From: Cyanidioschyzon merolae
Lineage: Eukaryota
Length of the DNA stretch: 64,000 bases
Assembly (NCBI GenBank): GCA_000091205.1
Contig: AP006486.2
Direction: 5' to 3' (one strand)
Shown: positions 8,901-56,535 of the stretch, piece after piece
Position numbering within the stretch: the first letter of the stretch is position 1
Layout: each line of letters begins with the position of its first letter
Made by a program: the position numbers and the translations under genes
Notes under the pieces: generated by a model
What the model saw: only the letters and a program-made list of their open reading frames with translations
Databases searched by the model: none
What the model was told of the DNA's origin: nothing

Positions 8901-9057
8901 CCCAAGAAGCAAACGAACATATGGAATGACGGTGACGGGACATGTTTCGATTCTCTGACCACCGTATCCAGCTGATCGGTGTATGCTTTGTAGGCTTCAG
9001 TCCGAGCGCGTATGAACGTCCAAACGGATCGTGCTAACGATATCCTCCAGAAGTATA

Positions 9058-9235
9058 CGAGGCCGCTAGAAGTGTACAACGGATACGGTTGCACACAGGC
9101 AAGAGGCATCCATTTTGCAGCGTGTTCATTGAATCGGAAAAAAAGAAGTTACCGAGGCCGCTAGAAGTGTACAACGGATACGGTTGCACACAGGCAAGAG
9201 GCATGCATTGTGCAGCGTGTTTATTGAATCGGATC
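9058..9235. repeat. Local tandem duplication (about 2 x 100 bp)
   Basis: 'gaggccgctagaagtgtacaacggatacggttgcacacaggcaagaggcat.cattttgcagcgtgtt.attgaatcgga' occurs twice head-to-tail; overlapping minus-strand ORFs share 'MPLACVQPYPLYTSSGL'. Confidence 0.7.
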
Positions 9236-15848: not shown

Positions 15849-16799
15849 CGCAAAGCCCGCCTATTTGCTCCAAGACTGAGCGTTTCGTTGTGCGGTGGAG
15901 CCACGGAATCCAACATTTCTATTTGTTCGCTTGTACACGGACATGATAAGTACGATTTACACACACCAGCGCTATGCAACAAGCGAGGCATTCGCATACG
16001 AACGATGTCCAGTATATCGGTCTAAACATCGAAAGATACTCGGTTCGGAGGATATTTAGCGGATGCAGTATGCAACGGTGCACCGCACGAGCGCAGCACA
16101 AGGTCCAGCCATTTCATATGTTTGCGCCGATGTTCCGCTTGAGTCACCAAGGAAAGGAACACCTGGTTTATTCGTGAGCCACTCGGTTGACCACTTACCA
16201 CAGCACGCTTCCTCGGCCGCAGACAGGCAAGCGATCTCGGGTATCGATGCGACTTGCTGAAGACAAAGTCGACCACTTGAATAGGTCCAAACCAGCCAGC
16301 TGCGGAGAGACTGGTCGGTCCCGTTCAGCCAGGCTTTCTTTGCGTGAGTTTCTGAGGTACACCCCACGCCCACCCTACACTGTTGAAGCTATTTGGCATA
16401 ACTTGAGCGTCCCAGTTGGACAGCAGAACACCAATAGACACGCGAAATTGAACCACGGCCGGCCGGGTCTCTGTCACGGAAGCTTGACGCGGTGACTGCG
16501 CTGGGTCTCCTATGAGGAACCGGTCGGACGACCACGAGCGATCCGTTCCACGATAGCACCGTCTGCCAGGACGTCAACAGCTAAGCGAAGCGTGCGCACG
16601 AGCGCATCCAGTCTCTCGTCGAAGCGCTCTAGCTGGGCTTCGAGCACCCGCAGCGCTACCACTGTGCGCTGGTACGCCGCTGCCGCCTGCCGTAGACACT
16701 CCGTTTCTCGTTGTAGCTGCTTCTCCCAACTGGCAGGCGATCCCTCCGTCGTCGACGTCTCCGCTGCCATGGAGAACACGCACACACCGACAACGAATG

Positions 16800-19395
16800 C
16801 CTTTTACAAGAAAAAACGTTGCTGCCGCAAGTGGTATAGTAGTGGCGACAAACGCACCGTAGACAAGGAGTCTTCAGCCGACGTGCAGACGCATCTCAGT
16901 CTTTCTCGACCGGCCACCCACTACTTCTTCCAACATTTTTTCATATAGTTCGAGTTTGAGAGGTTGTCCAACAAAATTCTATCTCGTCCACTCTGGAAGT
17001 CTATTCTCCAGCACCGCACGTCTCCTTATATTGATAGCGGCATTAATGTCTCGGTTCACAAACTCCATCCGTTTCTTGCCATCACTGGATGTACTTAATA
17101 ATGCGAGTAGTCCACGAACTTTCGCTCTCCTTTCCATTTGCTCCTCCGTCAACGGTCCGTGCTTTGCTATTTCCTCAGGGCTCCGCTAATACTTTTCCAT
17201 CTCGACCCTCTGAAGTGTACACCCCAGTTCATGGTGTGTATACGATGTTCGGAAGTCATCTACGGGTATCGTAACGAAACGCCGTGCGCACTCCTTGCAC
17301 GTTTTTGTCGTTGGAGCTGGTGTAATGCCTTTTTTCGACGCCCAGCGCCCTGCTCCATACGCTACTACGAGCCTCTGACTTTCATTCTCCCTCAGGGCGC
17401 TCAACTGATTGAAAAAGTTCGAGAACGCCCGCTGCTTCCCACAATACAAATTCATACGCAAACGAGCCCACCGGGGCTTGGTGGATTCTTTCCACAGGGC
17501 ATCCCAATGAGCAGCGCGAACTTCCATGAACTCCCGAAATGCTTCAAAGTCGGTTCCTCGGCTCGTCACCTCGCTCAAAGCTTCCAGGTGATCCCTCACT
17601 CCTGACTTCTAGGTCTCATTTTGTTTCCTCGCATTCATTATACCGGAATCCCGGTAGGATCTCGCTCTCGGGAACTTGAAAACTCGCATGTCTTTATGAC
17701 GTAAATTGTCGTCGACACTATCTTCCGCACGCTTGGGTACAGCGACGGTTATGATATTTGTGTTTCCGGGGTCCGCGCCAACGACAAAGCCGTTATCGTG
17801 CACTTTCTGTGTTGCACGATCCACCTCCTTCTTTTCTCGATGCTTCGCCGCGTCAACGACAAAGCCGTTATCGTGCACTTCGTGTGTCGCAGGATCCTCC
17901 TTCTTCGTACCTTCATCCTTCGCCACGGGCGGAGCTGGACGATCTGTCTTTAAGCGCCGATAGTGTACAGACATGGCTACTCCATCGTTTTCGATCATCC
18001 CAGTGAATACCTTTCGCTTGCTCACTTTCAGACGTTTGAAATCGACGAAATTCTTCTTCCAGTGCGTCTCCCGGCTTTCGCCGGAGAACTCCTCCCTGCT
18101 GACATTGAACTCCGGACTGATCTCCCTCATGATGCCGTAAAGGACGCCTGAATCGATAGTCACGAAATGTGACCTGATGTTGCACATTGGAACCACGTTG
18201 AAGCGCTTCCCCATTAGGAAAGCCTTCCGCCTCTCCCACTCTTCATTTGTCTCCTCATTCAGCTTCATTTCCGCCTTGCGTTCCAGCTCTCCGTCCAGCA
18301 ACACGAAATAGCGCAGGGCGAGGCGATAGTATCTTTCCTTATCTTTTTTCGACTCTGATAGCTTGTCTGTTGGACTCAGCAGCCCCAGTACCGCACGATG
18401 CTCTTCTACAACCGCACGGATGACAGAAGCTTCATTCGTGCTCTCGTTTGACGCCTTCTCTCCGACGAATTCGATCTCCTGTTCATGCTTGCGATCGTTC
18501 GTGACGCCATTGGTAATCGCCCATTTTCCTTTGCGAGCGATGCCAGGGTACAGCGCAAACACGGCGCGTATCATGAAGCGTTCGAGGTTCATAGTAAAAT
18601 GGTTCTTCAGGTTCCTGATGTACTTCATCGCTCCGTATGTGTAAATGCACCAGTCAATTTTGTATCGAGTACCGTCGAAGCTCTAAAAGGGATGTTTTTC
18701 GTGGAGGGCATGCACTAGCACATTTTCCCTCGGCGCTTCCGCTGTACCAAGCATCAGGTGTCGAATAAAGGTCTTATCGAGAAACCCGTCCGGAATCCCG
18801 ACCGTTTCCATCTGCGCCACGTCGCGATACATCTCCCTCGCCATATGCATCAGTCCTGAAGACGCCTTGACAATACTCTTGGAGTATGACGCAACACTGT
18901 TTTCGATAGCGTCTCGCAGCTTTTCCCTGTACGGATCCTTGATATTTTTAAGAAGACAGACTTTCACCACCTTCTTGTCGCACAGTCGTCTTTCGTGCCG
19001 CCTTCGACGCAGAGCGTCCCACTTTCAGTCCTTCTTCTCTTCCTTTTCTTCTGGACTTGGCACTGTTTTTCTGTTTTTTCTGGCAGCCCGCGACACTGGG
19101 CCTCCAGGATCATCGACTTGCTTTTCATAACTTCCTTTTTTTTGTTTTTTTTTGGAAAACAACGCTCCCTCCAACGCCTCTGATATAAACAGCGAGGAAA
19201 ACTTGAATAAACCAAACTGAGGGTTGAAATATAACTGAACTGAAAAGTACACTCTGCTATGACTTTAACGCAAATGCAACTTGTACTTGAGAGCAACACG
19301 CTCAAGATCGCGATCCCGTTTCCCTTCAACGACGACATGCGCGTCGTATCTCATGCCTGCCAGATATGGAGGTGCGCGTATCGACCGCGATGCCC
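16800..19395 (-). mobile_element. TnpB/Fanzor-like (IS605-OrfB-type, OMEGA nuclease) element, copy 1
   Basis: Minus-strand ORF fragments encode a Lys-rich NLS-like N-terminus (KKKQKKG...RKNRK), RuvC-I '[16 protein letters not shown]' (Asp near 17770), the zinc finger 'CKECARRF...SYTHHELGC', and RuvC-III 'RDINAAINI' (after the in-frame TAG at 17186-17188). About 180 bp of conserved 3' UTR reaches a sharp homology boundary near 16803 shared with three other loci. A subterminal palindrome 'cgacgacatgcgcgtcgt' lies at the 5' end (about 19335-19352). Confidence 0.7.
16980..19252 (-). pseudogene. Fanzor/TnpB-like nuclease gene, disrupted (frameshifts plus in-frame TAG) or intron-containing
   Basis: The coding potential is split over ORFs 19025..19252, 18683..18970, 17609..18628 and 17186..17599, then continues after the TAG to the stop at 16980-16982. 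The frame order differs from copy 3, so at least one copy is frameshifted. Confidence 0.55.
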
Positions 19396-19399
19396 CCTG

Positions 19400-20560
19400 G
19401 CACTGTATGGGCCGAGGGGCCCACCATGCGCACCCGGTTCAGTCGGATATCCATGCAGACCCCAACGCACCGCAAGAACACTTGGATGAAATCGATGCAG
19501 ATTTGGCTGAAGCGACGGTTATGCGAAAACACGCTCGAATCGTTCCCCAGAAATGTAGAAGGCTCCTACCGCCTCAAGCGAACTGTTCGAACAACCATAT
19601 GGGAACGTAGACACGGAACCAGTCGCGCCAGTAACGCCCGCCTTGACTCTATACCGGAACTACAACCTAGCATACACATGCGAGTACTGGTGGGAGGCGC
19701 TGGAGTTCCCGGGACTTGCTCGCGGTATCCAGTGGCTCGCCAAAATCCGCGTTGGTGGTTGCTGACTACCAGCACCTGCGCTAAACCATATAGGAACACT
19801 GGAATCGCAGTGGGAATCACACTGTCCCTGCTGTGGAAACGATAAACCCGAGACGCTGACATATTTAGGCTTACAGTGCGCGCGCTGGAAGCAGGAGCGC
19901 AGCGAGCTCCTTGAAGGACGGCATCAGCCGGGTATCACCGTGATAGTCGAAGGCCGGACACTCACTTTGAGTGCAGCACTGGCAACTGATGGTCCGCTAA
20001 CGGAGCCTCAGCGCTCATTCGTGGCCAACAGACTCACGTGCTACCTTCCAAGCGGAAGGTCTAGCGAATCGGACGCGCACACGGGTTTAGTATGCTTTCT
20101 GCGCCTATCCACTGTGGTGAGCGTCAAGCACAAACCCGCATTGCCAACCGACAACAACGCGTTCCATGCATGATCACGAAGGAGAGAGACGACTCCCAGA
20201 ATATATCTTAACGGCCAAGTGTCTCCAGCGTGTCGTGCCGCGAAGGCAAGCTTGCATCCGCAGACCGTCCGAGCACAAACTGACGACGAGACCCGATTCT
20301 ACGTCGGGTGAAGCACCCCTCGAGCCGACGCCCTCTGTGGTATGGAAAAGCCGTTCTAGCTCGATAAACTCTCTGCCCCAGCGGTTCAAGCGCAAAGGCG
20401 GATATGGAACGGCAGGTATTAGGTACCCACGACAGGACGTATGAGACGATCAGTATCTCCAAGAAGAAGTATAGGTAATGTAACTTGGAGGGAGGGGGCT
20501 TTATGGATATATTACCGCGCGCTGAAGTAAAACGCAAAACAAAAGAGAACGAAAAGAAAA
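19400..20560 (+). mobile_element. 5'-truncated non-LTR retrotransposon (LINE) remnant with a CCHC tail and A-rich 3' end
   Basis: Frame-2 translation around 19820-20173 gives 'HCPCCGNDKPETLTYLGLQCARWKQERSELLEG', the C..C...ET..[HY]L..C..W..ER zinc knuckle typical of LINE ORF2 C-termini. The 3' roughly 270 bp (20290-20560) is homologous to the 3' part of the SINE-like family and ends in 'aaaacgcaaaacaaaagagaacgaaaagaaaaag'. Confidence 0.35.
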
Positions 20561-20599
20561 AGCGCACAATAGGAGAATGCTGGCCCAAGTAAACGTCTT

Positions 20600-23125
20600 A
20601 TCAATAGAAAAATTGCCGTCGTTGAAGGGAAACGGGATCGCGATCTTGAGCGTGTTGCTCTCAAGTACAAGTTGCATTTGCGTTAAAGTCATAGCAGAGT
20701 GTACTTTTCAGTTCAGTTATATTTCAACCCTCAGTTTGGTTTATTCAAGTTTTCCTCGCTGTTTATATCAGAGGCGTTGGAGGGAGCGTTGTTTTCCAAA
20801 AAAAACAAAAAAAAGGAAGTTATGAAAAGCAAGTCGATGATCCTGGAGGCCCAGTGTCGCGGGCTGCCAGAAAAAACAGAAAAACAGTGCCAAGTCCAGA
20901 AGAAAAGGAAGAGAAGAAGGACTGAAAGTGGGACGCTCTGCGTCGAAGGCGGCACGAAAGACGACTGTGCGACAAGAAGGTCGTCAAAGTCTGTCTTCTT
21001 AAACATATCAAGGATCCGTACAGGGAAAAGCTGCGAGACGCTATCGAAAACAGTGTTGCGTCATACTCCAAGAGTATTGTCAAGGCGTCTTCAGGACTGA
21101 TGCATATGGCGAGGGAGATGTATCGCGACGTGGCGCAGATGGAAACGGTCGGGATTCCGGACGGGTTTCTCGATAAGACCTTTATTCGACACCTGATGCT
21201 TGGTACAGCGGAAGCGCCGAGGGAAAATGTGCTAGTGCATGCCCTCCACGAAAAACATCCCTTTTAGAGCTTCGACGGTACTCGATACAAAATTGACTGG
21301 TGCATTTACACATACGGAGCGATGAAGTACATCAGGAACCTGAAGAACCATTTTACTATGAACCTCGAACGCTTCATGATACGCGCCGTGTTTGCGCTGT
21401 ACCCTGGCATCGCTCGCAAAGGAAAATGGGCGATTACCAATGGCGTCACGAACGATCGCAAGCATGAACAGGAGATCGAATTCGTCGGAGAGAAGGCGTC
21501 AAACGAGAGCACGAATGAAGCTTCTGTCATCCGTGCGGTTGTAGAAGAGCACCGTGCGGCACTGGGGCTGCTGAGTCCAACAGACAAGATATCAGAGTCG
21601 AAAAAAGATAAGGAAAGATACTATCGCCTCGCCCTGCGCTATTTCGTGTTTCTGGACGGAGAGCTGGAACGCAAGGCGGAAATGAAGCTGAATGAGGAGA
21701 CAAATGAGGAGTGGGAGAGGCGGAAGGCTTTCCTAATGGGGAAGCGCTTCAACGTGGTTCCAATGTGCAACATCAGGTCACATTTCGTGACTATCGATTC
21801 AGGCGTCCTTTACGGCATCATGAGGGAGATCAGTCCCGAGTTCCATGTCAGCAGGGAGGAGTTCTCCGGCGAAAACCGGGAGACGTACTGGAAGAAGAAT
21901 TTCGTCGATTTCAAACGTCTGAAAGTGAGCAAGCGAAAGGTATTCACTGGGATGATCGAAAGCGATGGAGTAGCCATGTCTGTATAGTATCGGCGCTTGA
22001 AGACAGATCGTCCAGCTCCGCCCGTGGCGAAGGATGAAGGTACGAAGAAGGAGGATCCTGCGACACACGAAGTGCACGATAACGGCTTTGTCGTTGACGC
22101 GGCGAAGCATCGAGAAAAGAAGGAGGTGGATCGTGCAACACAGAAAGTGCACGATAACGGCTTTGTCGTTGGCGCGGACCCCGGAAACACAAATATCATA
22201 ACCGTCGCTGTACCCAAGCGTGCGGAAGATAGTGTCGACGACAATTTACGTCATAAAGACAAGCGTCTGCTGATGTTGTCAAGAGCTAGATATTACCGGG
22301 AATCCGGTATAATGAATGCGAGGAAGAAAATCGTTTCATGGAATTCAGGAATGAAAGATCACCTGGAAGCTTCGAGCGAGGTTACGAGCCGAGGAGCCGA
22401 CTTTGAAGCATTTCGGGAGTTCATGGAGGCTCGCGCTGCTCATTGGGATGCCCTGTGGAAAGAATCCACCAAGCCCCGGTGGGCTCGTTTGCGTATGAAT
22501 TTCTGTTGTGGGAAGCAGCGGGCGTTTTCGAACTTTTTCAATCAGTTGAGCGCCCGGAGGGAGAATGAAAGTCAGAGGCTCGTAGTAGCATACGGAGCAG
22601 GGCGCTGGAAGACCCAAAAGGGACTATGCCAGCTCCAACGACAAAAACGTGCAAGGAGTGCGCACGGCGTTTCGTTACGATGCCCGTAGATGACTTCCGA
22701 ACATCGTATACACACCATGGACTGGGGTGTACACTCCAGAGGGTCCAGATGGAAAAGTATTAGCGGAGCCCTGAGGAAATAGCAAAGCACGGACCTTTGA
22801 CGGAAGAGCAAATGGAAAGGAGAGCGAAAGTTCGTGGACTACTCGCATTATTAAGTACATCCAGTGATGGCAAGAAACGGATGGAGTTTGTGAACCGAGA
22901 CATTAATGCCGCTATCAATATAAGGAGACGTGCGGTGCTGGAGAATAGACTTCCAGAGTGGACGAGATAGAATTTTGTTGGACAACCTCTCAAACTCGAA
23001 CTATATGAAAAAATGTTGGAAGAAGTAGTGGGTGGCCGGTCGAGAAAGACTGAGATGCGTCTGCACGTCGGCTGAAGACTCCTTGTCTACGGTGCGTTTG
23101 TCGCCACTACTATACCACTTGCGGC
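20600..23125 (+). mobile_element. TnpB/Fanzor-like element, copy 2 (inverted relative to copy 1, about 97-98% identical)
   Basis: Same ORF set on the plus strand: 'MKYIRNLKNHF...', RuvC-I '[10 protein letters not shown]' (Asp at 22177-22179), and 'RDINAAINIRRRAVLENRLPEWTR' (Asp at 22899-22901). The 5' end is about 25 bp shorter than copies 1 and 3; the homology boundary is near 20625. Confidence 0.7.
20699..22968 (+). pseudogene. Fanzor/TnpB-like nuclease gene, disrupted
   Basis: Nonsense TAG at 21985-21987 (copy 1 has 'cac' His). A frameshift near 22610 replaces 'ASKKGITPAPTTKTCKECARRF' with 'KTQKGLCQLQRQKRARSA'. The in-frame TAG is at 22751-22753. Confidence 0.6.
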
Positions 23126-23194
23126 AGCAACGTTTTTCTTTCGAAAGGCGTTCGCTAGCAGCCTTCGATGATGCGTTCTTCGGGAACAGCTGCG

Positions 23195-23880
23195 TTTTTT
23201 TTTCTGATGAAAAAATGGTTAGATTCACTATGGATCCCAGAATTCGGAATGGATAATGGCTTTCGGGAAAGCGTCCACGATGAAGCGCCTACCTTCAAGT
23301 TCTATCACGCATACTTCCTCTCGGATATACTGGTCGTTTCGTATATTCTATCGTGCGCCGAGCCTGCCGTGAACACCCGCCGTAGCGCTTATACCACTGA
23401 AGCAGATGCCACACGGAGACAGAACGGCTTTGCCATACCACTGAAGGCATCGACTCGAGGCGTGGTTCCTCCGACGTGGGGTCGGAGTACATAATATATC
23501 TGGGAGCCTGTAAGCTGCGCAGACAGACGCACTGCCTGTGGCAGCGCGGAGCGATCTACAAGGAGTCCACTGTGACCACGGAGACGCCCAGACGCAGCAT
23601 CCTGCTCCAAGTCCCCGAATGAAATGCGTTGCGGACGAGTTGTGCAGGTATCGCCACAAAACCTGCCATTGGAGGAAGCATGAAGCACTAGCTAGCCCCG
23701 AAGACTCGTCCGGCTCGCGGGACCTTCCGCCTAGAAGGTAAAGTTTCGAAGATGCGGAAACTTTCCCCCTTTTCCATGAGTCATATCAAGGTCGAAAGAA
23801 ACTGTTATCGAGTTGCTAGTCAGTTGTTAGTTTCTGTTCTTTCGTCTCTAGGAGAAAGCTCGCTGCTCACGGTCGGGCAC
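23195..23880 (-). mobile_element. SINE-like non-autonomous retroposon, copy A (about 0.68 kb) with A-rich tail
   Basis: Collinear (about 85% identity by eye) with 29325..29990 and, in reverse, 49770..50455. The tail on the element strand is 'catcagaaaaaaa' (plus-strand T-run at 23203-23210). Confidence 0.5.
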
Positions 23881-29183: not shown

Positions 29184-29324
29184 GTCACCCTGCAGCTGAA
29201 AGCACAGGCGAAACGGCGCTTTCCTGAACCGCTACCAGCCACGTAGATACAGCACTTTGAGCATTGAAAAAGTAAGGCTGCGGGCGCCTGCCGCAGTGCC
29301 GGTGCGCTGGCTCTGTTATCCCTT

Positions 29325-29990
29325 TTTTTCGATGACGAAACGTTTATATGGACCGTGGATCCCAGATTGCTGAATCCATACAGGCTTTCGGGAATGTTTC
29401 CATTATGCAGGGCAATACTCCCAAGTTCCGTCACGTATACTTCCTTTCGGATATACTGGTCGTGTTGTACATGCTATCGTTCACAGAGTACCCGCTGTGA
29501 GCGCTCGCCGTAGCGCCTTTACCGCTGGTGCGGATGAAGCGCGGAGACGGAACGGCGTTGGTATGCCCATAGACATGTAGGCTCGAGGCATGGTGCACCT
29601 GATACGGTGTCGGAGTACGTAGTAATTCTGGGAGCCTGCAAACTGCGTAGACAGACCTACTGCCTGCGGTACCGGGAGGCGATAAACTAGGAGTCCACCG
29701 CGACCGGGGTGATATCCAGATGCAGCTTAACTGCCCCTAGTCCTGGAATAAACTGCACTGCGGACGAGTTGCTCAGATCTCACTGAGGCACGAGGCACAG
29801 TGGGGAGCAAGAAGCGCAAGCGCGGCAAACTCGTCCGGCTCACGGGACCTTCCGCCTGGAAGGTAAACTAGCGATAATACGGAAACCTTTTCCCCTTTTA
29901 CCGTCTACGTTAGAGAGGGAAAGAAATCGCTATCTCGTTCCTAGTTCGTGGTTCGTCTCTGTTCTCTTTTCTATCCCACATCAATCTATG
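29325..29990 (-). mobile_element. SINE-like retroposon, copy B
   Basis: Homologous to copy A over its full length ('ggatcccagattgctgaatcc...', 'gtccggctcacgggaccttccgcctggaaggtaaac...'). A-rich tail on the element strand (plus-strand 'ccttttttt' at 29325-29333). Confidence 0.5.
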
Positions 29991-33734: not shown

Positions 33735-34545
33735 ACAGAGCAGTCTGCATCCGGGCCAGAAAAGGCATACGCATCCCAGCCTGCAGTGTCGTGCATTTCC
33801 GATAATCCGAATTACACATAGAGCAGTCTGCATCCCGACCAGAAAAGGCATACGCATCCCAGCCTGCAGTGTCGTGCATTTCCGATAATCCGAATTACAC
33901 ATAGAGCAGTCTGCATCCGGGCCAGAAAAGGCATACGCATCCCAGCCTGCAGTGTCGTGCATTTCCGATAATCCGAATTACACATAGAGCAGTCTGCATC
34001 CCGACCAGAAAAGGCATACGCATCCCAGCCTGCAGTGTCGTGCATTTCCGATAATCCGAATTACACATAGAGCAGTCTGCATCCGGGCCAGAAAAGGCAT
34101 ACGCATCCCAGCCTGCAGTGTCGTGCATTTCCGATAATCCGAATTACACATAGAGCAGTCTGCATCCCGACCAGAAAAGGCATACGCATCCCAGCCGGCA
34201 GTGTCGTGCATTTCCGATAATCCGAATTACACATAGAGCAGTCTGCATCCCGACCAGAAAAGGCATACGCATCCCAGCCTGCAGTGTCGTGCATTTCCGA
34301 TAATCCGAATTACACATAGAGCAGTCTGCATCCCGACCAGAAAAGGCATACGCATCCCAGCCTGCAGTGTCGTGCATTTCCGATAATCCGAATTACACAT
34401 AGAGCAGTCTGCATCCGGGCCAGAAAAAGCATACGCATCCCAGCCTGCAGTGTCGTGCTTTTCCGATAATCCGAATTACACATAGAGCAGTCTGCATCCG
34501 GGCCAGAAAAAGCATACACATCCCAGCCTGCAGTGTCGTGCATTT
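33735..34545. repeat. 83-bp tandem satellite, about 10 units, two alternating variants
   Basis: Unit 'cagtctgcatcc[g/c]g[g/a]ccagaaaaggcatacgcatcccagcctgcagtgtcgtgcatttccgataatccgaattacacatagag' repeats with an exact 83-bp period (ORF starts at 33812, 33895, 33978, 34061, 34144 all 83 bp apart). The array generates the chained 77-aa 'MHDTAGWDAYAFSG...' artefact ORFs. Confidence 0.9.
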
Positions 34546-49769: not shown

Positions 49770-50455
49770 GTTGAGTGTGAAATTGCACCTAGGGTGCTGA
49801 CAAGCGACAAGCGCGGCATCGACGACTGCGAGAAAGAACTGAAACGAACCACTGACTAGCAGCTCGATAACAGTTTCTTTCGACCTTGATAGCAATCGAT
49901 GAAATCGGGAAAAGTTTCCGAATCTTCGAAAGTTTATCTTCCAGACGGAAGGTCCAGCGGTCCGGACGAGTCTGCGGGGCTAGTGCTTCATGCTTCCTCC
50001 AGTGCAAGGTGCTATGGCGAGACCTGCGTAGCTCGTCTGCAACACAAGCAATCGGGAAGTAGGGAAAGGAAGCCGCGCCTGGGCGTCGCCCTTGTCGCAG
50101 TGGACTCCTGGTAGATCGGTTCGCCCTGGCGCGGGCTCCCAGAACGATGATGTACTCCGACCCCGTGTCGGATGAGCCCTGCCTCGAGACGACGCCCTCA
50201 GTGGTCTTGCAAAGCCGCTACGTCTCAGTGCAGCATCTGCTTCAGCAGTATATCAGCGCTACGGAAGGTGCTCGCGGCAGGTACTCGGCGCAGGATAGAA
50301 CATACGAAACGACCAGTATATCCGAGACCAAGTATGCGTTATGGAACTTGGAGGTAGATGCCTTATGGCGGACGATTCCCCGGGAGCCATTATCGATTTC
50401 GAGTTCTGGGATCCATGGTCAATTGTCCACGGATTGTCATCGAAAAAAGAAATCG
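49770..50455 (+). mobile_element. SINE-like retroposon, copy C (plus orientation)
   Basis: The reverse complement of 49790-49900 matches the 5' region of copies A and B ('atcaaggtcgaaagaaactgttatcgag.tgctagtcagt'). The 3' end is '...gagttctgggatccatggtcaattgtccacggattgtcatcgaaaaaagaaa'. Confidence 0.5.
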
Positions 50456-50704: not shown

Positions 50705-51389
50705 GATTTTTTTCGAAACTTGAGAATCTCGGGATCTGCTCGAAACCACTGCCTAGGTAAGTCATTTTCTGAATCGGGACTCTGCAGCAACTAGCCGATC
50801 CCCGAAAAATTTACAATTCTTGTTCGCAGCCTGCGCAAGGATACTTGCGTCCCGGCAGACGCTTGTCCCTTCCGCAAGCTCCAACGAGAGTGCCTGGAGG
50901 AATCATGTTACAGTCCGTCAAACATTCTAGGATCACCGGGTGCCGGGCATTTGGATAGTGCAAGGCCGCTGGATGCGTCTTTGCGAATTCTGTACACTCA
51001 CAGAATGGCTTCGCGTTTTGTTGATTCGTATCATATCCAGGCGCACAGTACGACACATGTGAGGAACGTGGACACAAGGCCGGAACCTGTGGAAAGAACG
51101 AATTTCCCGCGACTCCTGGGAGAATCTGCGCGGCATAAGAACAGCTTTGATTTCGCCGCACCACCAACCAGATGAGGACACACGGAGCAGTTGGCCGGCA
51201 GGTTTGTCCCGATCGCCGGATCTTCTTACAATGTAAACTTGGAGACTCGACAAAAAACCTTGCCCCCATTATGCGCTGCAATATATTAGAACAGGAGCCG
51301 TTCGCTAATTGCTCAACCGCGGTCTGTATTCGTTTATCCTGAATAACGATTCATTGGTTCCGGCACACACCTCGAAAGGAGGCACCGCC

Positions 51390-54145
51390 GCCTCCAAACA
51401 CCTCTCGAAAGTTCAACGACGTCACCGTTGTACAGTAGTGGCGAGTGACCCGCCCTAGACAAGAAGTCTCCGACTGCTATGCAGACGCCTCCGCGTCTTT
51501 CTCGACCGGCCAACTACTACTGCATCCAACTTTTTCTCATATACTTCGACTTTGAGAGGCTGTCCAACTATGTTCTCTCTTGTCGACTCTGGAGGTGTTT
51601 CCTCCAGCACTGCACATCGCCTTGTATTGATAGCGGCGATAAAGTACCGGCCCACAAACTCCATCCGTTTCGTGCCCCCGTTGGTTGTACTTACTAGCGT
51701 GAGTAGTCCACGAACTTTCGCTCTCCTTTCCACTTCCTCCTCCGTCAGCGGTCCGTACTTTGCTATTTCCTCAGGGCTCCTCTGGCAATTTTCCATTTCG
51801 ACCCTCTGAAGTGTGCACCCTAGCTCGTGTTGTGTGTAGGAGGTTCGGAACAGATCTATCGGTTTTGCAACGAAAAGCCTTGCGCACTCCTTGAACACCC
51901 TCGTCGTTGGAGCTGGCTTAGTGCCTTTCTTGGGCGCCCAGCGCCCTGCTCTGTATGCTGCTACTAGCCTCTGATTTTCACCCTCGTTCAAGGCGCTCAA
52001 CTGATTGAAAAAATTCGCGAACGCTCGCTACTTACCACAATACAGATTCATTCGCAAACGAGTCCATCGGGGCTTTATATACTCCTCCCACACCGCATCC
52101 CAATGCACAATGCGAACTTCCATGAATATTCCGAAAAGATTCAAAGTCCGCTCCACGGCTCGTCACCTTGCTCATAGCTTCCAGGTGCTTCTTCAGTCCA
52201 GCATTCATATCTCGATTTTCTTCCACTCATTCAATATACCGGATTCTCGATAGTATGTCGCTCTCGAGAACCTCAAAAGGCGCATATCGTTCTGACGAAA
52301 GTAACCGTCAGTAACATCTTCCGCGCGCTTGGGTACAGCGATGGTTACGATATTTGTGTTTCCGGTGTCCCCGCCAACGAAAAAGTCGATATCTTGCACT
52401 TTCTGCGTCACAGGATCCACCTCCTTCTTCTCTTCATGCTTCGCCGCGCCAACCATAACGTGGTTATCCTGCACTTTCTGTGTGGCAGGATCCGCCTACC
52501 TCTCATCTTCATCCTTCACCGCGCCAACGACAAGGTCGTTATCCTGCACGTTCTGTGTCGCAGGTTCCGCCCCCTTCTCATCTTGATCCTTCACCGCGTC
52601 AACAACAAGTTCGTTATTCTCCACCTCCTGCGTTGCAGGATCAGACTCCCCCTTTTCTTCATCCTTCGTGACGGGCGCAGCCGAGGGAGGGACTGGCCGA
52701 TCTTTCTTCAACCACCGATAGTGTACAGACATGGCTACTCCATCGGTTTCGATCATCCCTGTGAATACCTTTTATTTGCTGACTTTCACACGTTTGAAAT
52801 CGAAGATATTCTTCCACAAAGGCTCCCGGATTTCACCGGTGAGGTCCTCCCTGTTAACATTGAACTCCGGACTGATCTCCCTCATGATGCCGTAAAGGAC
52901 GCCTGAATCGATAGTCACAAAATGTGACTTGATGTTGCTCATTAGAACCACGTTGAAGCGCTTCCCCATTAGGACAGCCTTCCGTCTCTCCCATTCTTCA
53001 TTTCTTCCTCAAACAGCTTCATCTCCGCCTTCCGCTCGAGCTCCCGGTCCAGAAACACAAAATACCGCATTATGAGATAATAGTATCTTTCCTTATCTTT
53101 TTTCGACTCTGATATCATATCTCTTGGATTCGCCAACCACAGTACCGCACGTTGCTCTTGTCTAGCCGCACGGATCGCAGAAGCTTCGTTCGCGCTCTCG
53201 TTTACGCCTTCTCTCTGACAAATTCGACCTCATCTTCACGCTTGCGATCTTTCGTGATGGCCTTGATAGTCGCCCGTTTTCCATTGCGAGATAGGCCCGG
53301 GTAGAGTGCAACCACGGCACGTAACATAAAACGTTCGAGGTTCACTGTCAAATGGTCCTTCAGATTCGTGGGGTACTTCATGGGCCCATATGAGTGAACA
53401 TCCCGGTAACCCCAGTATCGAGTACCACTGAAGCTGTAAAAGGGATGTTTTTCGTGGAGGGCATGCACCCGCTCATTTTCCTTCCGAGCTTCCTCTGTGC
53501 CAAGCATCAGCTGACTAACAAAGGTCTTGTCGAAAAAATCTTTCGGAATCTCTACCGTTTCCATGTGGGTCACGTCGCGATCCATCTCCCTCGGCAAATG
53601 CATCAGTCCTGACAACGCGTTGACAATACTCTTGGAGTAAGAGGCCACATGTTTTTCGATAGCGTCTCGCAACTTACCCTGTAGGGATCCTTGATATGTC
53701 CAAGAAGGAAGGTTTTCACCACCTTCTCGTTGTAAAGTCGACTTTCTTGCCGCCTTCGATGTAGGGCCTCCTGCTTTCGGTTCTTCAGCTCTTCCTTTTC
53801 TTCAGGACTCGGCACTGCTTTTTGTTCTTTTCTGGCAGCCGGCGACCTTGGACCTCCAGGATCGTGGGCTTGCTTTTTCATAAATTTCCTTTTCTTGTTT
53901 TTTAAAGATAACGCTCTTTGAACGCTTCTGTTAGATACTGCGCAAAACACTTGACTAGACTTGTTTGAAGCTTGAAACGAAAATGAACAGAAACACTGTA
54001 CTTTGCTAGGACCTGAACGGAAATTTAACTTTTTTCCAGCTGAACAACACGCTAGAGATCATAATCACGTTTCCCTTCAACAGCGGCACGCGCGTCGTGT
54101 CTCATGTCTGTCTGATCTCCGAGGTGCACTCACCGAGCGCGATGC
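51390..54145 (-). mobile_element. TnpB/Fanzor-like element, copy 3 (diverged, nuclease-dead)
   Basis: Minus-strand ORFs 53603..53950 (NLS-like 'KNKKRKFMKKQAHDPGGP...'), 53202..53672, 52496..52756, 52205..52474 (RuvC-I '[17 protein letters not shown]') and 51455..52000 (zinc finger 'TSYTQHELGCTLQRVEMENCQ'). It reads through the position that is TAG in copies 1 and 2, but the RuvC-III motif has degenerated to 'GRYFIAAINT' (Asp->Tyr, tac at 51644-51646). 5' and 3' terminal blocks are homologous to copy 1. Confidence 0.65.
51455..53950 (-). pseudogene. Fanzor/TnpB-like nuclease gene, frameshifted and catalytically degenerate
   Basis: At least two frame changes relative to copy 1 (for example 'DPYRVSCETLSKNMW' versus copy 1 'DPYREKLRDAIENSV') and the RuvC-III D->Y substitution. 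Extra internal ATQ.V.DN.[LF]VV[DG]A repeats. Confidence 0.6.
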
Positions 54146-54837
54146 CTGCACCGCGCGAGACGCCTCAGCGATCGATGAAGGACACGTGTTCGACAACCCG
54201 CCTTGGCACATGCTTGTACGCATCGCACTGCAGCTGAAATAAACTATCGTAGATCGGAAATTGACGTAGAACGATCTCCTGCTATAGACTCTGTCGCTGG
54301 TGCCGACGCTACTGCCCATCGCAGTACCGCCCCGACATACAAGGGGCTGTTGGGGCCTGACACAAAACCCCTCGACGCTTCTATCAAAAGCGTAGCGTTC
54401 TCTGCAGCTTCCGCTTGTGTGGATGAGTTGTGCATCAATCTTCTCGTTAGGAATTTCATTTGTTTTATTGATCGTAACCAAACAAGGTAAGGTAGTATTC
54501 CTGGACTCGTATATGCGTCTGTTCGTGATGCTTGTTATGCATGCCGCACGGACGCTGCAATGAGGAAATGACCTGAATTGTGCTTCGATCTTGCGTCATA
54601 CGCTGGTACTGATGGCAGTTCAAGCCATTTGCATGCTATCGTCTTTGTCCAAGTTATGGTGCTTGCTACTCTCCCGGATCCGGTGATCTTGGTAGAGGCA
54701 TCGCATACATAGAGTGTCTATACTTAGCATTCCATTTGACCGACGCATCCGCCAAAAGCACATACTGTATTCTGATCTACTCTATAAGATTAGTTTCAAG
54801 AGCCTAACCCGAACATCGAGCCCGGAAGCGACAAAGC

Positions 54838-54950
54838 GAACAACGAATGCCTTTGAGAAAAACGCTGCCGCCCGCGGTGTACAATAGTGCCGAATGACCT
54901 GCCCTAGACATGAAGTCTCCAACTGACGTGCAGACGTTTGCAAAAAATAC
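54838..54950 (-). repeat. Solo 3'-terminal fragment of the Fanzor-like element (no ORF attached)
   Basis: 'acaacgaatgcctttgagaaaaacgctgccgcccgcggtgtacaatagtgccgaatgacctgccctagacatgaagtctccaactgacgtgcagacg' aligns with the 3' boundary block of copy 1 (16785-16890) and copy 3 (51400-51480), then diverges. Confidence 0.55.
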
Positions 54951-55527
54951 AGAGCACCGTAGGAAATTTCCTTATGCCTCCTCTACGGTATTCGTCGGAG
55001 AGCTGTGGTGAAGTCCATTTACGATCGTTGTGATTTCTGAGCGCAGCACTGCGGAACCCTTGGCACTACGTACTGGTGAAGTTGTTGTTCGAAATGGTCT
55101 GAGTTCTGCCTAGTTTCTGAAAAGGCATTGAGCGCTTGTGCTAGTTGCGCTGAACGCTAGACAATCTACGGGAGATTTAGCTCGGACTCTGGACAATTGA
55201 CGGGCGATCACTCGTGCCGCTACGCAAAAGAGGTTTTTGACTGGATACGCACACTTACGCGATCGATTCTAGCCGATGACGTGATCGGCAGCTTTCGCAC
55301 CGGAGACGACCTAACCCGAGAAAGTACAAGGCATGTTTGTCTCTGATCCGCTGTACCGGGGCTAAAGAGTAGTTCGCTCACCTGCTGTAAGTAGAGCACC
55401 GTTTCCGCTGGGTACCGAACATGACAGGTGCTTCACAGCTGGACATCGTCACCACTGCCAGCGTCCGCTTCCTTTGGTAATGCAGCGTTCGCCTGTAGCG
55501 CGCCGGCATCGTATGCTGCATCTTCGT

Positions 55528-56535
55528 ATGGGCCCGAAACAGTCGCAGATCGCCGTGGTCACTGGCGCGTCCTCTGGGGTCGGTCTGTATGCAGCTCACG
55601 CTCTGATCAACAAGGGCAACTGGCACATCGTCATGGCATGTCGTGACGTCGACCGGGCGGAGCGCGCAGCAAACAGCGTAAACCTTCCAAAGGACGCCTA
55701 TACAGTGCTGCATTGTGATCTGGCTGATTTCGCCTCTGTACTAAAGTTTGTGAAAGGGCTATCGAGTGTGGCGCGCGTCGATCACCTGGATGCCCTGATC
55801 TGCAATGCCGCAATCTGGCATCCGCGGGTCAAGAAACCGCGTTTCACGGTGGACGGCATCGAGAAAACCATGCAGGTATGCCATCTGAGCCATTTGCTTC
55901 TATGTCGGGAGCTGTTGCCGAAGCTGAAAATATCGCGCGGGCGCATTGTGTTTCTGACGACTCAGACACACTCGCCGGATTCGCTGCCGGGAAAGATCCC
56001 CCCGCAGGCTCGTCTCGGGGATTTATCTGGTCTAGCCGCGGGGCTTGATCCGCAGACGACGGACATGGTAGAAAGTGGCCCGTTTCAGCCCACAAAAGCT
56101 TTCAAAGACGCCAAAGCCGAGAACGTGTTGACAATGAAGGCGCTCAGTGATCGATACGGCCGCGACGGGGTGACCTCTGTGGCGATTTTCCCGGGATGTG
56201 TCGCCGAAAGCAACCTCTTCCGCGAAAAGCGTGGCTGGTTCCGGTACGTATTCTTCCCGATTCTTCAGAAGTATATCACTCGGCAATACGTTCCGAATGA
56301 TGAGGCCGGCCGCCGTGTAGCCGAAGTGGCGACCCAGGGACAGTTCTCGGACGCGGGCTCGTATTGTCAGTGGCGTGGCAAATATACGGAAGGTCGAGAG
56401 AAGACGAAATCGCAGGTTATTGAACCAACGTACGAAATCGACAAGGCAGATCAGCTATACGAACTGAGTCTTGATCTGATCGACCAGGCGTTACGGAGGC
56501 GAGGCCTCAAGTCGACTATCTTGGCCCCTGTCTAA
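55528..56535 (+). CDS. Short-chain dehydrogenase strongly resembling light-dependent protochlorophyllide oxidoreductase (LPOR-like), catalytic Tyr replaced by Phe
   Basis: The ORF spans 55474..56535; the likely start is 55528 ('MGPKQSQIAVVTGASSGVGLYAAHALINKGNWHIVMACRDVDRAERAA'). It is collinear with LPOR: 'ITGASSGLGLATAKAL..G.WHVIMACRD..KAERAA', 'LD.L.CNAA.Y.PTAKEP.FT..G.E..VG.NHLGHFLL', 'GDLRGLAGGL', 'YPGCIA.T.LFREH...F...FP.FQKYIT.GYVSE.EAG.R.A.VV'. The YKDSK catalytic motif reads 'AFKDAK' here (ttc at about 56113). Confidence 0.75.
   Translation: MGPKQSQIAVVTGASSGVGLYAAHALINKGNWHIVMACRDVDRAERAANSVNLPKDAYTVLHCDLADFASVLKFVKGLSSVARVDHLDALICNAAIWHPRVKKPRFTVDGIEKTMQVCHLSHLLLCRELLPKLKISRGRIVFLTTQTHSPDSLPGKIPPQARLGDLSGLAAGLDPQTTDMVESGPFQPTKAFKDAKAENVLTMKALSDRYGRDGVTSVAIFPGCVAESNLFREKRGWFRYVFFPILQKYITRQYVPNDEAGRRVAEVATQGQFSDAGSYCQWRGKYTEGREKTKSQVIEPTYEIDKADQLYELSLDLIDQALRRRGLKSTILAPV

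Follow-up and report, generated by a model that had tools for sequence, protein, structure and literature searches.

The window analysed here, a stretch of 64,000 nt from Cyanidioschyzon merolae, carries three Fanzor-like copies. The third (copy 3) raises the question of what kind of relic it is, and how it relates to an isolated copy of the element's 3' terminal block (the solo block) that lies nearby in the same orientation. The best explanation, to which we assign a probability of about 0.9, is that the locus contains a single ancient member of the CMe-1 Fanzor1 family, now inactive and equipped with a variant 5' module, together with the stump of a second member upstream. This is ordinary transposon decay in an already described family. 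The features on which the argument draws are collected in Table 1.

Table 1. Features of the three Fanzor-like copies and of the solo block (positions in the window)
Feature	Position	Strand	Detail
Copy 1, full element	16794..20612	-	pseudogene, 5 stops and 1 frameshift
Copy 2, 5'-truncated inverted duplicate of copy 1	20614..23154	+	97% identical to copy 1
Copy 3, Fanzor-like element	~51382-54810	-	
Copy 3, 3' terminal block	51382..51488	-	46 element ends aligned, tails compared
Copy 3, degenerate Fanzor1 coding region	51455..53881	-	ATG 53881-53879 to TAG 51457-51455
Copy 3, RuvC-III catalytic Asp to Tyr	51644..51646	-	TAC; plus strand gta
Copy 3, catalytic (relocated RuvC-II) Glu to Leu	51851..51853	-	CTG
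Copy 3, RuvC-I catalytic Asp, kept	52367..52369	-	GAC, in GGDTGNTN
Copy 3, in-frame 75-nt tandem repeat	52372..52667	-	directly upstream of RuvC-I
Copy 3, non-coding leader	53882..54146	-	upstream of the coding region, common to copies 1 and 2
Copy 3, alternative 5' module (A5)	54147..54810	-	5' edge between 54749 and ~54818
Solo 3' block, putative 5'-truncated remnant of a second family member	54824..54937	-	98 nt plus tail

Family assignment and fold

A Fanzor1 family, CMe-1A, has been described in the C. merolae genome by Bao & Jurka (2013, Mob DNA 4:12; PMC3627910). Their description of the family gives ~150 old copies of ~3 kb with ~80% identity to the consensus, no TIRs, no established target-site duplication and a 5' part of 635 bp corresponding to TE-N2_CMe, and leaves the family unclassified. 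The window copies share with CMe-1A the host genome, a ~2.6-kb Fanzor1 gene and the 3' end, as well as the absence of TIRs and the presence of old, mostly degenerate copies ~80-88% identical to the consensus (0.87-0.88 for the consensus built here); including the 5' module, the window elements are 3.4-3.8 kb long. We assigned all three to CMe-1 by host, description and architecture. The host follows from three ORFs of the window that are identical to C. merolae 10D proteins encoded on a 513,455-bp chromosome; an exact look-up of a neighbouring 754-aa ORF gave no record. Three further repeats in the window (23197-23843, 29323-29965 and 49832-50448) fit the description of the 635-bp TE-N2_CMe, and 360 related stretches were found in metagenomes of related organisms. 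No inverted pair joining the two ends of copy 3 was found, as for the TIR-less CMe-1A.

A single-sequence search of the PDB returned only noise, and Pfam searches with the raw ORF fragments and with the repaired protein gave no significant match, the best being PF07282 (TNB; E 0.11). Searching the PDB with a profile of the family gave a sole match, SpuFz1 (8GKH; E 2.7e-4), in which the D/E/D residues were aligned, and hhalign gave 96% probability (E 3.5e-9). The alignment depth for modelling came from searching with a distant intact homologue (P0033), whose identity to the repaired protein of the window is 36%. Its AF2 model reached a pLDDT of 92.4; the top seven PDB matches in Foldseek were PpFz, SpuFz and GtFz (E 6e-19 to 1e-14), and TM-scores against Fanzor1 structures were 0.6-0.72. 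A model of a closer homologue (P0001), built on the shallow family alignment, had a pLDDT of 44 and was discarded. The predicted fold of the family is the Fanzor1 fold. Extending the profile search to more remote relatives recovered family fragments only.

The CMe-1 clade has the fold and D/E/D layout of SpuFz1, GtFz1 and PpFz (8GKH, 9CER, 9CF0; PMC10432273), comprising the RuvC-I Asp, the DE[YF]xTS Glu and the NRD Asp, and both it and known Fanzor1 have a basic N-terminus and, behind the ORF's 3' end, a conserved non-coding block, which in CMe-1 is putatively structured. Unlike these proteins, it lacks the CCCC zinc finger and falls below threshold for the Pfam TNB model; nor do the elements have flanking inverted repeats, which are 30 nt long in Spu-1. 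Active proteins of the Fanzor1 group work as RuvC endonucleases directed by a guide RNA, which the element encodes at its 3' end (PMC10432273). RNA guidance is established for relatives, and by analogy the CMe-1 family may have cleaved under the direction of a guide RNA from its own 3' end; the copies in the window are pseudogenes.

Loss of the catalytic site in copy 3

Copy 3 is a homologue of copies 1 and 2, as the sequence-only reading had stated: by BLAST, 51427-54146 is ~80% identical to 16831-19394 (copy 1) and 20614-23118 (copy 2). Its tandem repeat has 3.9 units of 25 aa, against ~2 units in copies 1 and 2, and the alignment shows an in-frame length difference of 162 nt. The frameshifts reported earlier are real. 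Column-by-column translation located 1-nt deletions at codons 69, 227, 294 and 561, a +1 insertion ~26 codons past the last of these, and premature stops at codons 372, 464 and 620, giving eight breaks (five frameshifts and three stops); a tblastn search with P0001 crosses frames -1, -3, -2 and -1.

At the catalytic site, copy 3 keeps one residue and has lost two. The RuvC-I motif, GADPGNTN in copies 1 and 2 and GGDTGNTN in copy 3, aligns to IDPN of 8GKH, and its Asp (equivalent to SpuFz1 D383) is D in 119/119 relatives; the retention of this residue, claimed earlier, was confirmed. So was the Asp-to-Tyr change in RuvC-III, where the VNRDINAAINI of copies 1 and 2 is replaced by VGRYFIAAINT in copy 3. 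The RD motif in question (SpuFz1 D606 equivalent) has the family sequence FVNRDFNAAINI, which GRYFIAAINT of copy 3 does not match; the column is D in all 119 relatives, and the codon is GAC in the orthologues and in every other family member.

In Fanzor1 the RuvC-II site is rearranged, with the canonical Glu replaced by Gly or Pro and an alternative Glu downstream (E541 in SpuFz1; Jiang et al. 2023, PMC10530073; numbering from PMC10432273). The CMe-1 family has VVAYGAG at the canonical position and VDEFRTS ~35 residues downstream, and in the profile alignment the Glu of VDEFRTS aligns with LDEYKTS/E541 of SpuFz1. This column is E in each of the 119 relatives; the motif is VDDF in copies 1 and 2 and IDLFRTS in copy 3. 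The loss of this Glu in copy 3 (VDEF to IDLF) was missed in the sequence-only reading. The label nuclease-dead is not supported for copy 3, as it suggests a possibly functional inactive protein. With an ORF broken eight times and two of its three catalytic residues replaced, copy 3 is incapable of RNA-guided cleavage altogether, and the Asp-to-Tyr change is one more neutral hit, later than the lineage split.

The zinc finger said to be retained in copy 3 is not there. TCKEC of copy 1 is unconserved (VFKEC in copy 3, AYKEC in P0001), no CxxC occurs from the DEFRT(S/T) motif to the RD motif in any of the 119 relatives, and the interval in CMe-1 carries THHELGC...C without a second cysteine pair. 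A CCCC zinc finger between the TS and RD motifs is part of the Fanzor1 motif as Bao & Jurka describe it (PMC3627910) and of the NUC domain of Saito et al. (PMC10432273). Its absence weakens strict motif membership, not the match in fold or catalytic site. Judging from the aligned proteins, the whole clade combines an invariant D/E/D triad with the lack of the CCCC finger. A near-intact ORF of a relative is found in L001/L008, with a possible A-run frameshift at ~codon 22.

The 3' blocks and the 5' modules

The 3' block of the family is a conserved stretch of ~100 nt that overlaps the stop codon and has a terminal hairpin with two mutually compensated versions. RNAalifold found a single helix, of 3 bp, across 33 block sequences. 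Helices drawn by hand were 72% paired, compared with 39-60% in slid controls, with few compensatory changes; folding z-scores for the whole block averaged -0.8 and covariation statistics were modest. Scans against Rfam and for tRNAs gave no match. By analogy with characterized Fanzor1 systems, the block may encode a guide RNA. In copy 3 it consists of ~90 nt with short palindromes and a weakened terminal hairpin, followed by a ~17-nt tail, and it appears to mark the 3' end of the element; homology to the orthologous locus L071 ends at 51394.

The solo block is present and far beyond chance: 54875-54936 is 84% identical to 51426-51487 by BLAST (E 8.6e-13), and the match to the family profile in nhmmer has an E of 8.5e-20. 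Homology covers 54840-54937, with a tail to ~54824. The block had earlier been drawn as 54838-54950, and this part of the claim does not stand, as 54938-54950 has no homology to the element's 3' block. Nor does the gap of 0.7 kb that was thought to separate the block from copy 3, which runs merely to the end of homology with copies 1 and 2; 54147-~54810 belongs to copy 3 as its A5 module. Because copy 3 has this ~660-nt 5' module of its own, only some tens of bases separate the solo block from the true 5' end of the element.

The A5 module is absent in copies 1 and 2 and occurs upstream of Fanzor at five non-orthologous loci (L061, L007, L066, L031 and L069). The TE-N2 5' part of 635 bp was not found in copy 3, where the unrelated A5 module stands instead. 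Since A5 replaces the TE-N2 module, copy 3 is a sister sub-variant of CMe-1A, not strict CMe-1A, and does not feature in the description of the family in PMC3627910. The 5' module of copy 1 is 1.2 kb long, partly TE-N2-like (20293-20495, 71%), and opens with the TE-N2 5' motif. Family elements have swappable 5' modules (TE-N2 and A5).

Given the 3' subterminal hairpin and the absence of TIRs and target-site duplications, we also considered whether the elements are Helitrons. Helitrons begin with TC at the 5' terminus and finish with CTRR at the 3' terminus, which a hairpin precedes by 10-12 nt. The family's terminal hairpin sits ahead of a 15-17-nt tail, the tails end in ...CCAGGGGT, ...GCTGCCGT or ...GTGTGTG rather than CTRR, no Rep/helicase was seen, and the assignment was rejected. 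A general LINE-like series of 5' truncations was likewise rejected, as most internal copies have 5' ends no more than 64 nt apart. The solo block itself resembles 5'-truncated relics such as those of LINEs in keeping the 3' end, lacking the 5' part and diverging neutrally; in contrast to such LINEs, full-length copies predominate in the CMe-1 family.

History of the locus and rival explanations

Copy 3 had been placed at the old end of a within-window age series, to be checked by pairwise divergence. There is no real age series, because the distances to the family consensus are nearly equal for copies 1, 2 and 3 (0.131, 0.134 and 0.147). Copies 1 and 2 are separated by a K2P of 0.029, and the identity elsewhere is ~80%, the norm for the old CMe-1 family as described by Bao & Jurka (PMC3627910). 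Copies 1 and 2 are also pseudogenes themselves rather than intact references, a state that had been overlooked. They share premature stops at codons 35, 149, 702 and 771, so the young duplication copied an already dead element, and this 97%-identical inverted duplication is the only young event in the series. No target-site duplication was found at the junctions of copy 2; a full TE-N2 copy begins at 23197, 43 nt past its 3' end.

The history of copy 3 can be read from orthologous metagenome loci, in which the solo block and the element are present and the catalytic Asp and Glu are kept. Positions 1-6795 of L071 match 59303-52519 of the window at 80% identity, spanning an LPOR-like gene, the solo block, the 5' module and the Fanzor gene. 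None of the seven lesions of copy 3 that were checked is present in L071 or L072, and the orthologues' Fanzor frames are broken at other places. Distances between paralogues and between orthologues are similar (both ~0.2-0.25), which would fit a burst of the family not long before the lineages separated. The shared presence of block and element implies that the arrangement is older than the lineage split and that copy 3 decayed afterwards. Because the codon-294 frameshift is perhaps common to a further orthologue (L027), some of the decay could be older than part of the lineage splitting. Synteny with L071 ends exactly at the 3' end of the element, which indicates some rearrangement at the locus.

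Under the explanation we prefer, the last ~115 nt of a second CMe-1 member would have come to lie directly upstream of copy 3 in the same orientation, either as a 5'-truncated insertion or as a full copy that was largely deleted. The missing part of that member would have had to cover the neighbouring protochlorophyllide-reductase gene, both its promoter and its coding region. On this explanation, the two pieces stood at the locus before the lineage of C. merolae 10D separated from its hot-spring relatives, when the ancestral element still had its catalytic Asp and Glu; neutral decay then gave every lineage a different set of lesions. The earlier proposal of a cluster decaying in place is borne out to the extent that copy 3 is a dead, decaying element and that the solo block derives, in truncated form, from the same family. 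A mutated, frameshifted copy with a stump is what is expected in an old family of ~150 copies known since 2013. The locus does offer a dated example: the orthologous locus in hot-spring Cyanidioschyzon-like genomes retains the catalytic residues, which places their loss in 10D after the split. The by-products outweigh this main finding, namely the zinc-finger-less D/E/D clade, the swappable 5' modules and the recurrent head-to-head and head-to-tail arrangements of elements.

That copy 3 is instead a domesticated, inactive Fanzor, serving the host as an RNA-guided DNA binder, would fit the retention of the RuvC-I Asp beside two replaced catalytic residues; the eight frame-breaking lesions refute it, the distance to consensus equals that of other dead copies and the orthologues are broken at different places, so that we give this reading practically no credence. 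We attach as little weight to the view that the solo block stems from an unrelated repeat sharing the Fanzor 3' sequence, which the sequence-only reading had named as grounds for rejection. A profile search of ~0.8 Mb (the window and 82 related loci) found 79 blocks; 75 lie directly after a Fanzor ORF, and the other four represent a single orthologous locus, that of the solo block. Its stems, hairpin region and tail also follow in the same order as in full copies. A functional, stand-alone guide-RNA (omega-RNA) locus, used in trans by an intact Fanzor, is very improbable. The block does occupy the position where characterized Fanzor systems encode their guide RNAs (PMC10432273) and has been kept at the locus in at least three lineages. 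The model would be the 'ghost' Spu-1 elements of Spizellomyces punctatus (Saito et al. 2023), which have similarly lost the nuclease gene and kept terminal sequence; they retain both terminal repeats and number 134 loci, whereas the solo block is a 3' stump, found at one locus among the data examined, with degraded stems. Nothing upstream of the last ~100 nt remains, two mismatches interrupt one of the inner stems, the terminal hairpin has lost its fold (z = +1.3) and identity among orthologues (0.63-0.71) is not above that of the flanks (0.63-0.85). The block diverges about like its flanks, as expected of a relic. Gene conversion, considered for the differing hairpin versions in the orthologous solo blocks, was rejected on the same comparison, as the block is not more diverged than its flanks.

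A less remote, but still unlikely, reading is that the solo block and copy 3 are one product of transposition, for example where a donor array was copied by read-through or in tandem (head to tail). The tail of the solo block stops ~4 nt before TCGATG, which resembles the 5'-terminal motif (a T-run and CGATGA) of TE-N2/B copies and of the 5' module of copy 1; at copy 2, TTCGATGATG directly follows the 3' tail, ahead of the full TE-N2 copy. L069/L065 and L060/L061 likewise have a 3' piece of Fanzor located upstream of an element of the A5 type. However, the spacing there is 390-885 nt with no precise junction, most A5-type and B-type elements have no block upstream, and the resemblance at TCGATG covers few bases and is missing in L061. 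We therefore hold only very tentatively that the abutment of a 3' end and a 5' start, at copy 3 as at copy 2 and TE-N2, is a footprint of movement by elements with interchangeable 5' modules. Such a footprint would reflect head-to-tail or read-through copying, or else insertion directed to the site just behind a 3' end already present. If true, it would offer a first clue to how CMe-1 and TE-N2 transpose, a question that dates from 2013.

Copy 3 and its family

Copy 3 belongs to a transposon family that is already known; it is an ordinary decayed copy with the stump of a neighbour beside it. The family, CMe-1A, is a Fanzor1 family of the C. merolae genome with ~150 copies, each ~80% identical to a consensus of ~3 kb and some still intact; it was described as having no TIRs, an undetermined TSD and an unknown class (Bao & Jurka 2013, PMC3627910). 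The 5' 635 bp of CMe-1A is TE-N2_CMe, a separate element with roughly 70 copies (PMC3627910), and the second repeat of the window (~650 nt), also located directly upstream of the Fanzor gene in most related loci, fits this published description. In the window, its copies all start with a T-run followed by CGATGA; one begins 43 nt past the 3' end of copy 2, and another is found ~950 nt beyond copy 3 on its downstream side. The C. merolae 10D proteins BAM79229, BAM79233 and BAM79234, encoded on a chromosome of 513,455 bp, are matched exactly by three ORFs of the window.

Coordinates of features in the window
Feature	Position	Strand	Remarks
Copy 1	16794-19394	-	~80% identity with copy 3
Copy 2	20614-23154	+	~80% identity with copy 3
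Copy 3	51427-54146	-
RuvC-III codon, copy 3	51644-51646	-	TAC (Tyr); gta on plus strand
Catalytic Glu codon, copy 3	51851-51853	-	CTG
RuvC-I Asp codon, copy 3	52367-52369	-	GAC
75-nt repeat, copy 1	17773-17927		~2 units
75-nt repeat, copy 2	22023-22177		~2 units
75-nt repeat, copy 3	52372-52667		3.9 units
5' module, copy 3	54147 to ~54810	-	5' edge between 54749 and ~54818
Solo block	54840-54937	-	tail to ~54824
Protochlorophyllide-reductase-like ORF	55474-56535		gap to solo block 54938-55473
~650-nt repeat	23197-23843; 29323-29965; 49832-50448		part at 20293-20495
83-nt tandem array	33737-34545		~9.7 units, 96-98% identical; unrelated to Fanzor elements
95-nt tandem duplicate	9049-9233		93% identical; unrelated to Fanzor elements

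The three copies were aligned, and columnwise translation of the alignment in a single corrected frame gave a protein of roughly 750-810 aa. As the sequence-only reading had it, copy 3 retains the RuvC-I Asp (GGDTGNTN) and carries Tyr in place of the RuvC-III Asp (VGRYFIAAINT versus VNRDINAAINI in copies 1 and 2), at the codon then named. The catalytic Glu is also lost, the family motif VDEFRTS having become IDLFRTS. The several frameshifts it reported were likewise recovered, as 1-nt deletions at codons 69, 227, 294 and 561 and a +1 insertion ~26 codons past the last of these; the corrected-frame translation also has premature stops at codons 372, 464 and 620. Independently, a tblastn search of copy 3 with the homologous protein P0001 gave frames -1, -3, -2 and -1. 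Further differences are a 3-nt deletion and an in-frame gain of 162 nt, which is the excess of a 75-nt (25-aa) tandem repeat. This repeat lies in frame directly before the RuvC-I strand, each unit repeating the 'DNDxVV' strand that runs into the catalytic Asp, and P0001 has 4 units.

Fanzor1 fold and catalytic layout

Pfam gave no significant match for the window protein, the only hit being PF07282 (E 0.11). A nine-sequence family profile searched against the PDB matched solely the Fanzor1 nuclease SpuFz1 (8GKH; E 2.7e-4) over ~360 residues, with the RuvC-I Asp, the family Glu and the Asp of the RD motif aligned to D383, E541 and D606 (numbering from PMC10432273), and hhalign against the matched segment gave a probability of 96% (E 3.5e-9). 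The structural model of P0033, a distant intact relative with 36% identity to the repaired window protein, reached a pLDDT of 92.4 with 119 relatives in the alignment. Its best seven PDB matches were the Fanzor1 proteins PpFz, SpuFz and GtFz (E 6e-19 to 1e-14, TM 0.6-0.72), followed by Cas12f and TnpB, and the D, E and D catalytic columns were invariant in all 119 relatives (alignment A6). The family therefore belongs with Fanzor1 in fold and catalytic layout, but it lacks the CCCC zinc finger, which was reported in earlier papers to be conserved in Fanzor/TnpB: whereas D/E/D is kept, a CxxC between the DE[FY]RT[ST] and RD motifs was found in none of the 119 relatives. Copy 3 thus had no zinc finger to retain, contrary to the initial suggestion; the TCKEC of copy 1 is not conserved, copy 3 having VFKEC there and P0001 AYKEC. 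The clade is Pfam DUF8286/PF26935; one of its members comes from Tetrabaena socialis, and hundreds more are metagenome proteins ~600-650 aa long.

The solo block beside copy 3

Across 46 element ends, no non-coding part is better conserved than the 3' block. It contains short palindromes (AGACG...CGTCT and GGGCG...CGCC), a terminal hairpin of 8-10 bp in two mutually compensated versions (CGCCGTTCGA-CTT-TCGAACGGCG and AACGTTTTTC-TTTT-GAAAGACGTT) and a G/T-rich tail of 15-17 nt; since several tail types are common to non-orthologous copies, the tail belongs to the element. Fanzor guide RNAs are encoded at this position in studied systems (PMC10432273), and the 3' block may by position be a guide RNA, although formal support for RNA structure in it was weak.

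The solo block shares homology with the final ~100 nt of the element (E 8.6e-13 by BLAST against the end of copy 3 itself; E 8.5e-20 against the family profile). Its start is abrupt, at the motif (G/A)CGTCTGCAC; the stems, hairpin region and tail of full copies follow, with their order preserved. A profile search of ~0.8 Mb, in loci picked because they contain Fanzor, found 79 blocks: 75 come directly after a Fanzor ORF, while the other four all represent this one locus, disposing of the alternative that the block is an unrelated repeat. The block and its shared orientation with copy 3 were correctly recognized, but the supposed 0.7-kb gap is not a spacer: it is the 5' module of copy 3, which also precedes the Fanzor gene at the non-orthologous metagenome loci L061, L007, L066/L031 and L069. 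The solo-block tail is therefore close to the true 5' end of the element, at a distance of a few bases to ~75 nt depending on edge placement.

The solo block behaves as neutral DNA: the orthologous blocks are 0.63-0.71 identical, no more so than their flanks (0.63-0.85), and in the window two mismatches in the inner stem accompany a terminal hairpin that no longer folds. The stump may be a truncated insertion, or it may be a remnant left by a later deletion; that it is a by-product of the copying mechanism of the CMe-1 family seems unlikely. It lies on the opposite strand to, and ~540 nt upstream of, the protochlorophyllide-reductase-like ORF, and a full-length copy here would have overlain that gene and its promoter region.

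Orthologous loci and the age of the copies

A metagenome scan returned 360 related stretches, and 80 loci were fetched. Loci L071/L072 and L027 are orthologous to the copy 3 locus; L071 1-6795 matches window 59303-52519 with 80% identity, spanning the protochlorophyllide-reductase-like gene (TIGR01289, E 1.5e-89), solo block, 5' module and Fanzor gene. The orthologues read VNRDFHAAINI and IDEFRTS, with the catalytic D and E in place. L071/L072 lack all seven of the copy 3 lesions that were checked, and one frameshift is possibly also in L027. Comparison of these loci places the tandem arrangement before the lineage split and the inactivation of copy 3, an independent event, after it. Between 10D and the L071 lineage, synteny runs without a break across 6.8 kb upstream, continues through the element and ends exactly at its 3' end (window 51394 / L071 7770), downstream of which no similarity was found, even by tblastx.

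K2P distances were 0.029 between copies 1 and 2 and 0.23 from copy 3 to either. The proposed within-window age series did not survive comparison with a consensus of 32 metagenome copies, from which the distances were nearly level (copy 1, 0.131; copy 2, 0.134; copy 3, 0.147), so that copy 3 is about as old as copy 1. Copy 3 represents a separate sub-variant, which differs in its 5' module and has extra repeat units. Copies 1 and 2, 97% identical and in inverted orientation, are not intact: a 1-nt loss at codon 2 and four stops (codons 35, 149, 702 and 771) are common to both, and each has private lesions besides. The sole recent event is the duplication of copy 1, by then already dead, into an inverted copy truncated at its 5' end. 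The initial reading of the sequence was correct, with some over-interpretation. Each of the four common stops is one base away from the sense codon that copy 3 has at that position (CGA, TAC, CAG, GAG); two of the changes are C-to-T, one of them at a CpG (CGA to TGA).

Most fetched Fanzor loci were broken, and an open frame of ~750 codons with an intact triad occurred only in L001/L008, where one nucleotide missing from an A-run near codon 22 puts the ATG out of frame. This near-intact member (L001 5800-8259 / L008 3183-5519) ends in ...RENFIG, upstream of the 3' block. The two contigs are 98.5% identical for ~9.9 kb onward from the 5' terminus of the 5' module (L001 4401 / L008 1659) and differ entirely upstream, where one has a 2OG-oxygenase gene and the other an inverted Fanzor copy; this divergence at the element boundary reflects structural polymorphism, paralogous duplication or an assembly join.

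Head-to-head Fanzor pairs around a single 5' module were seen at at least four different loci (window 16794-23154, L008, L063/L078 and L026/L082). Their junction positions differ between loci, and the pairs therefore look like independent events; in the window pair, the start of copy 2 coincides exactly with the 5' terminus of the copy 1 element (20612/20614).
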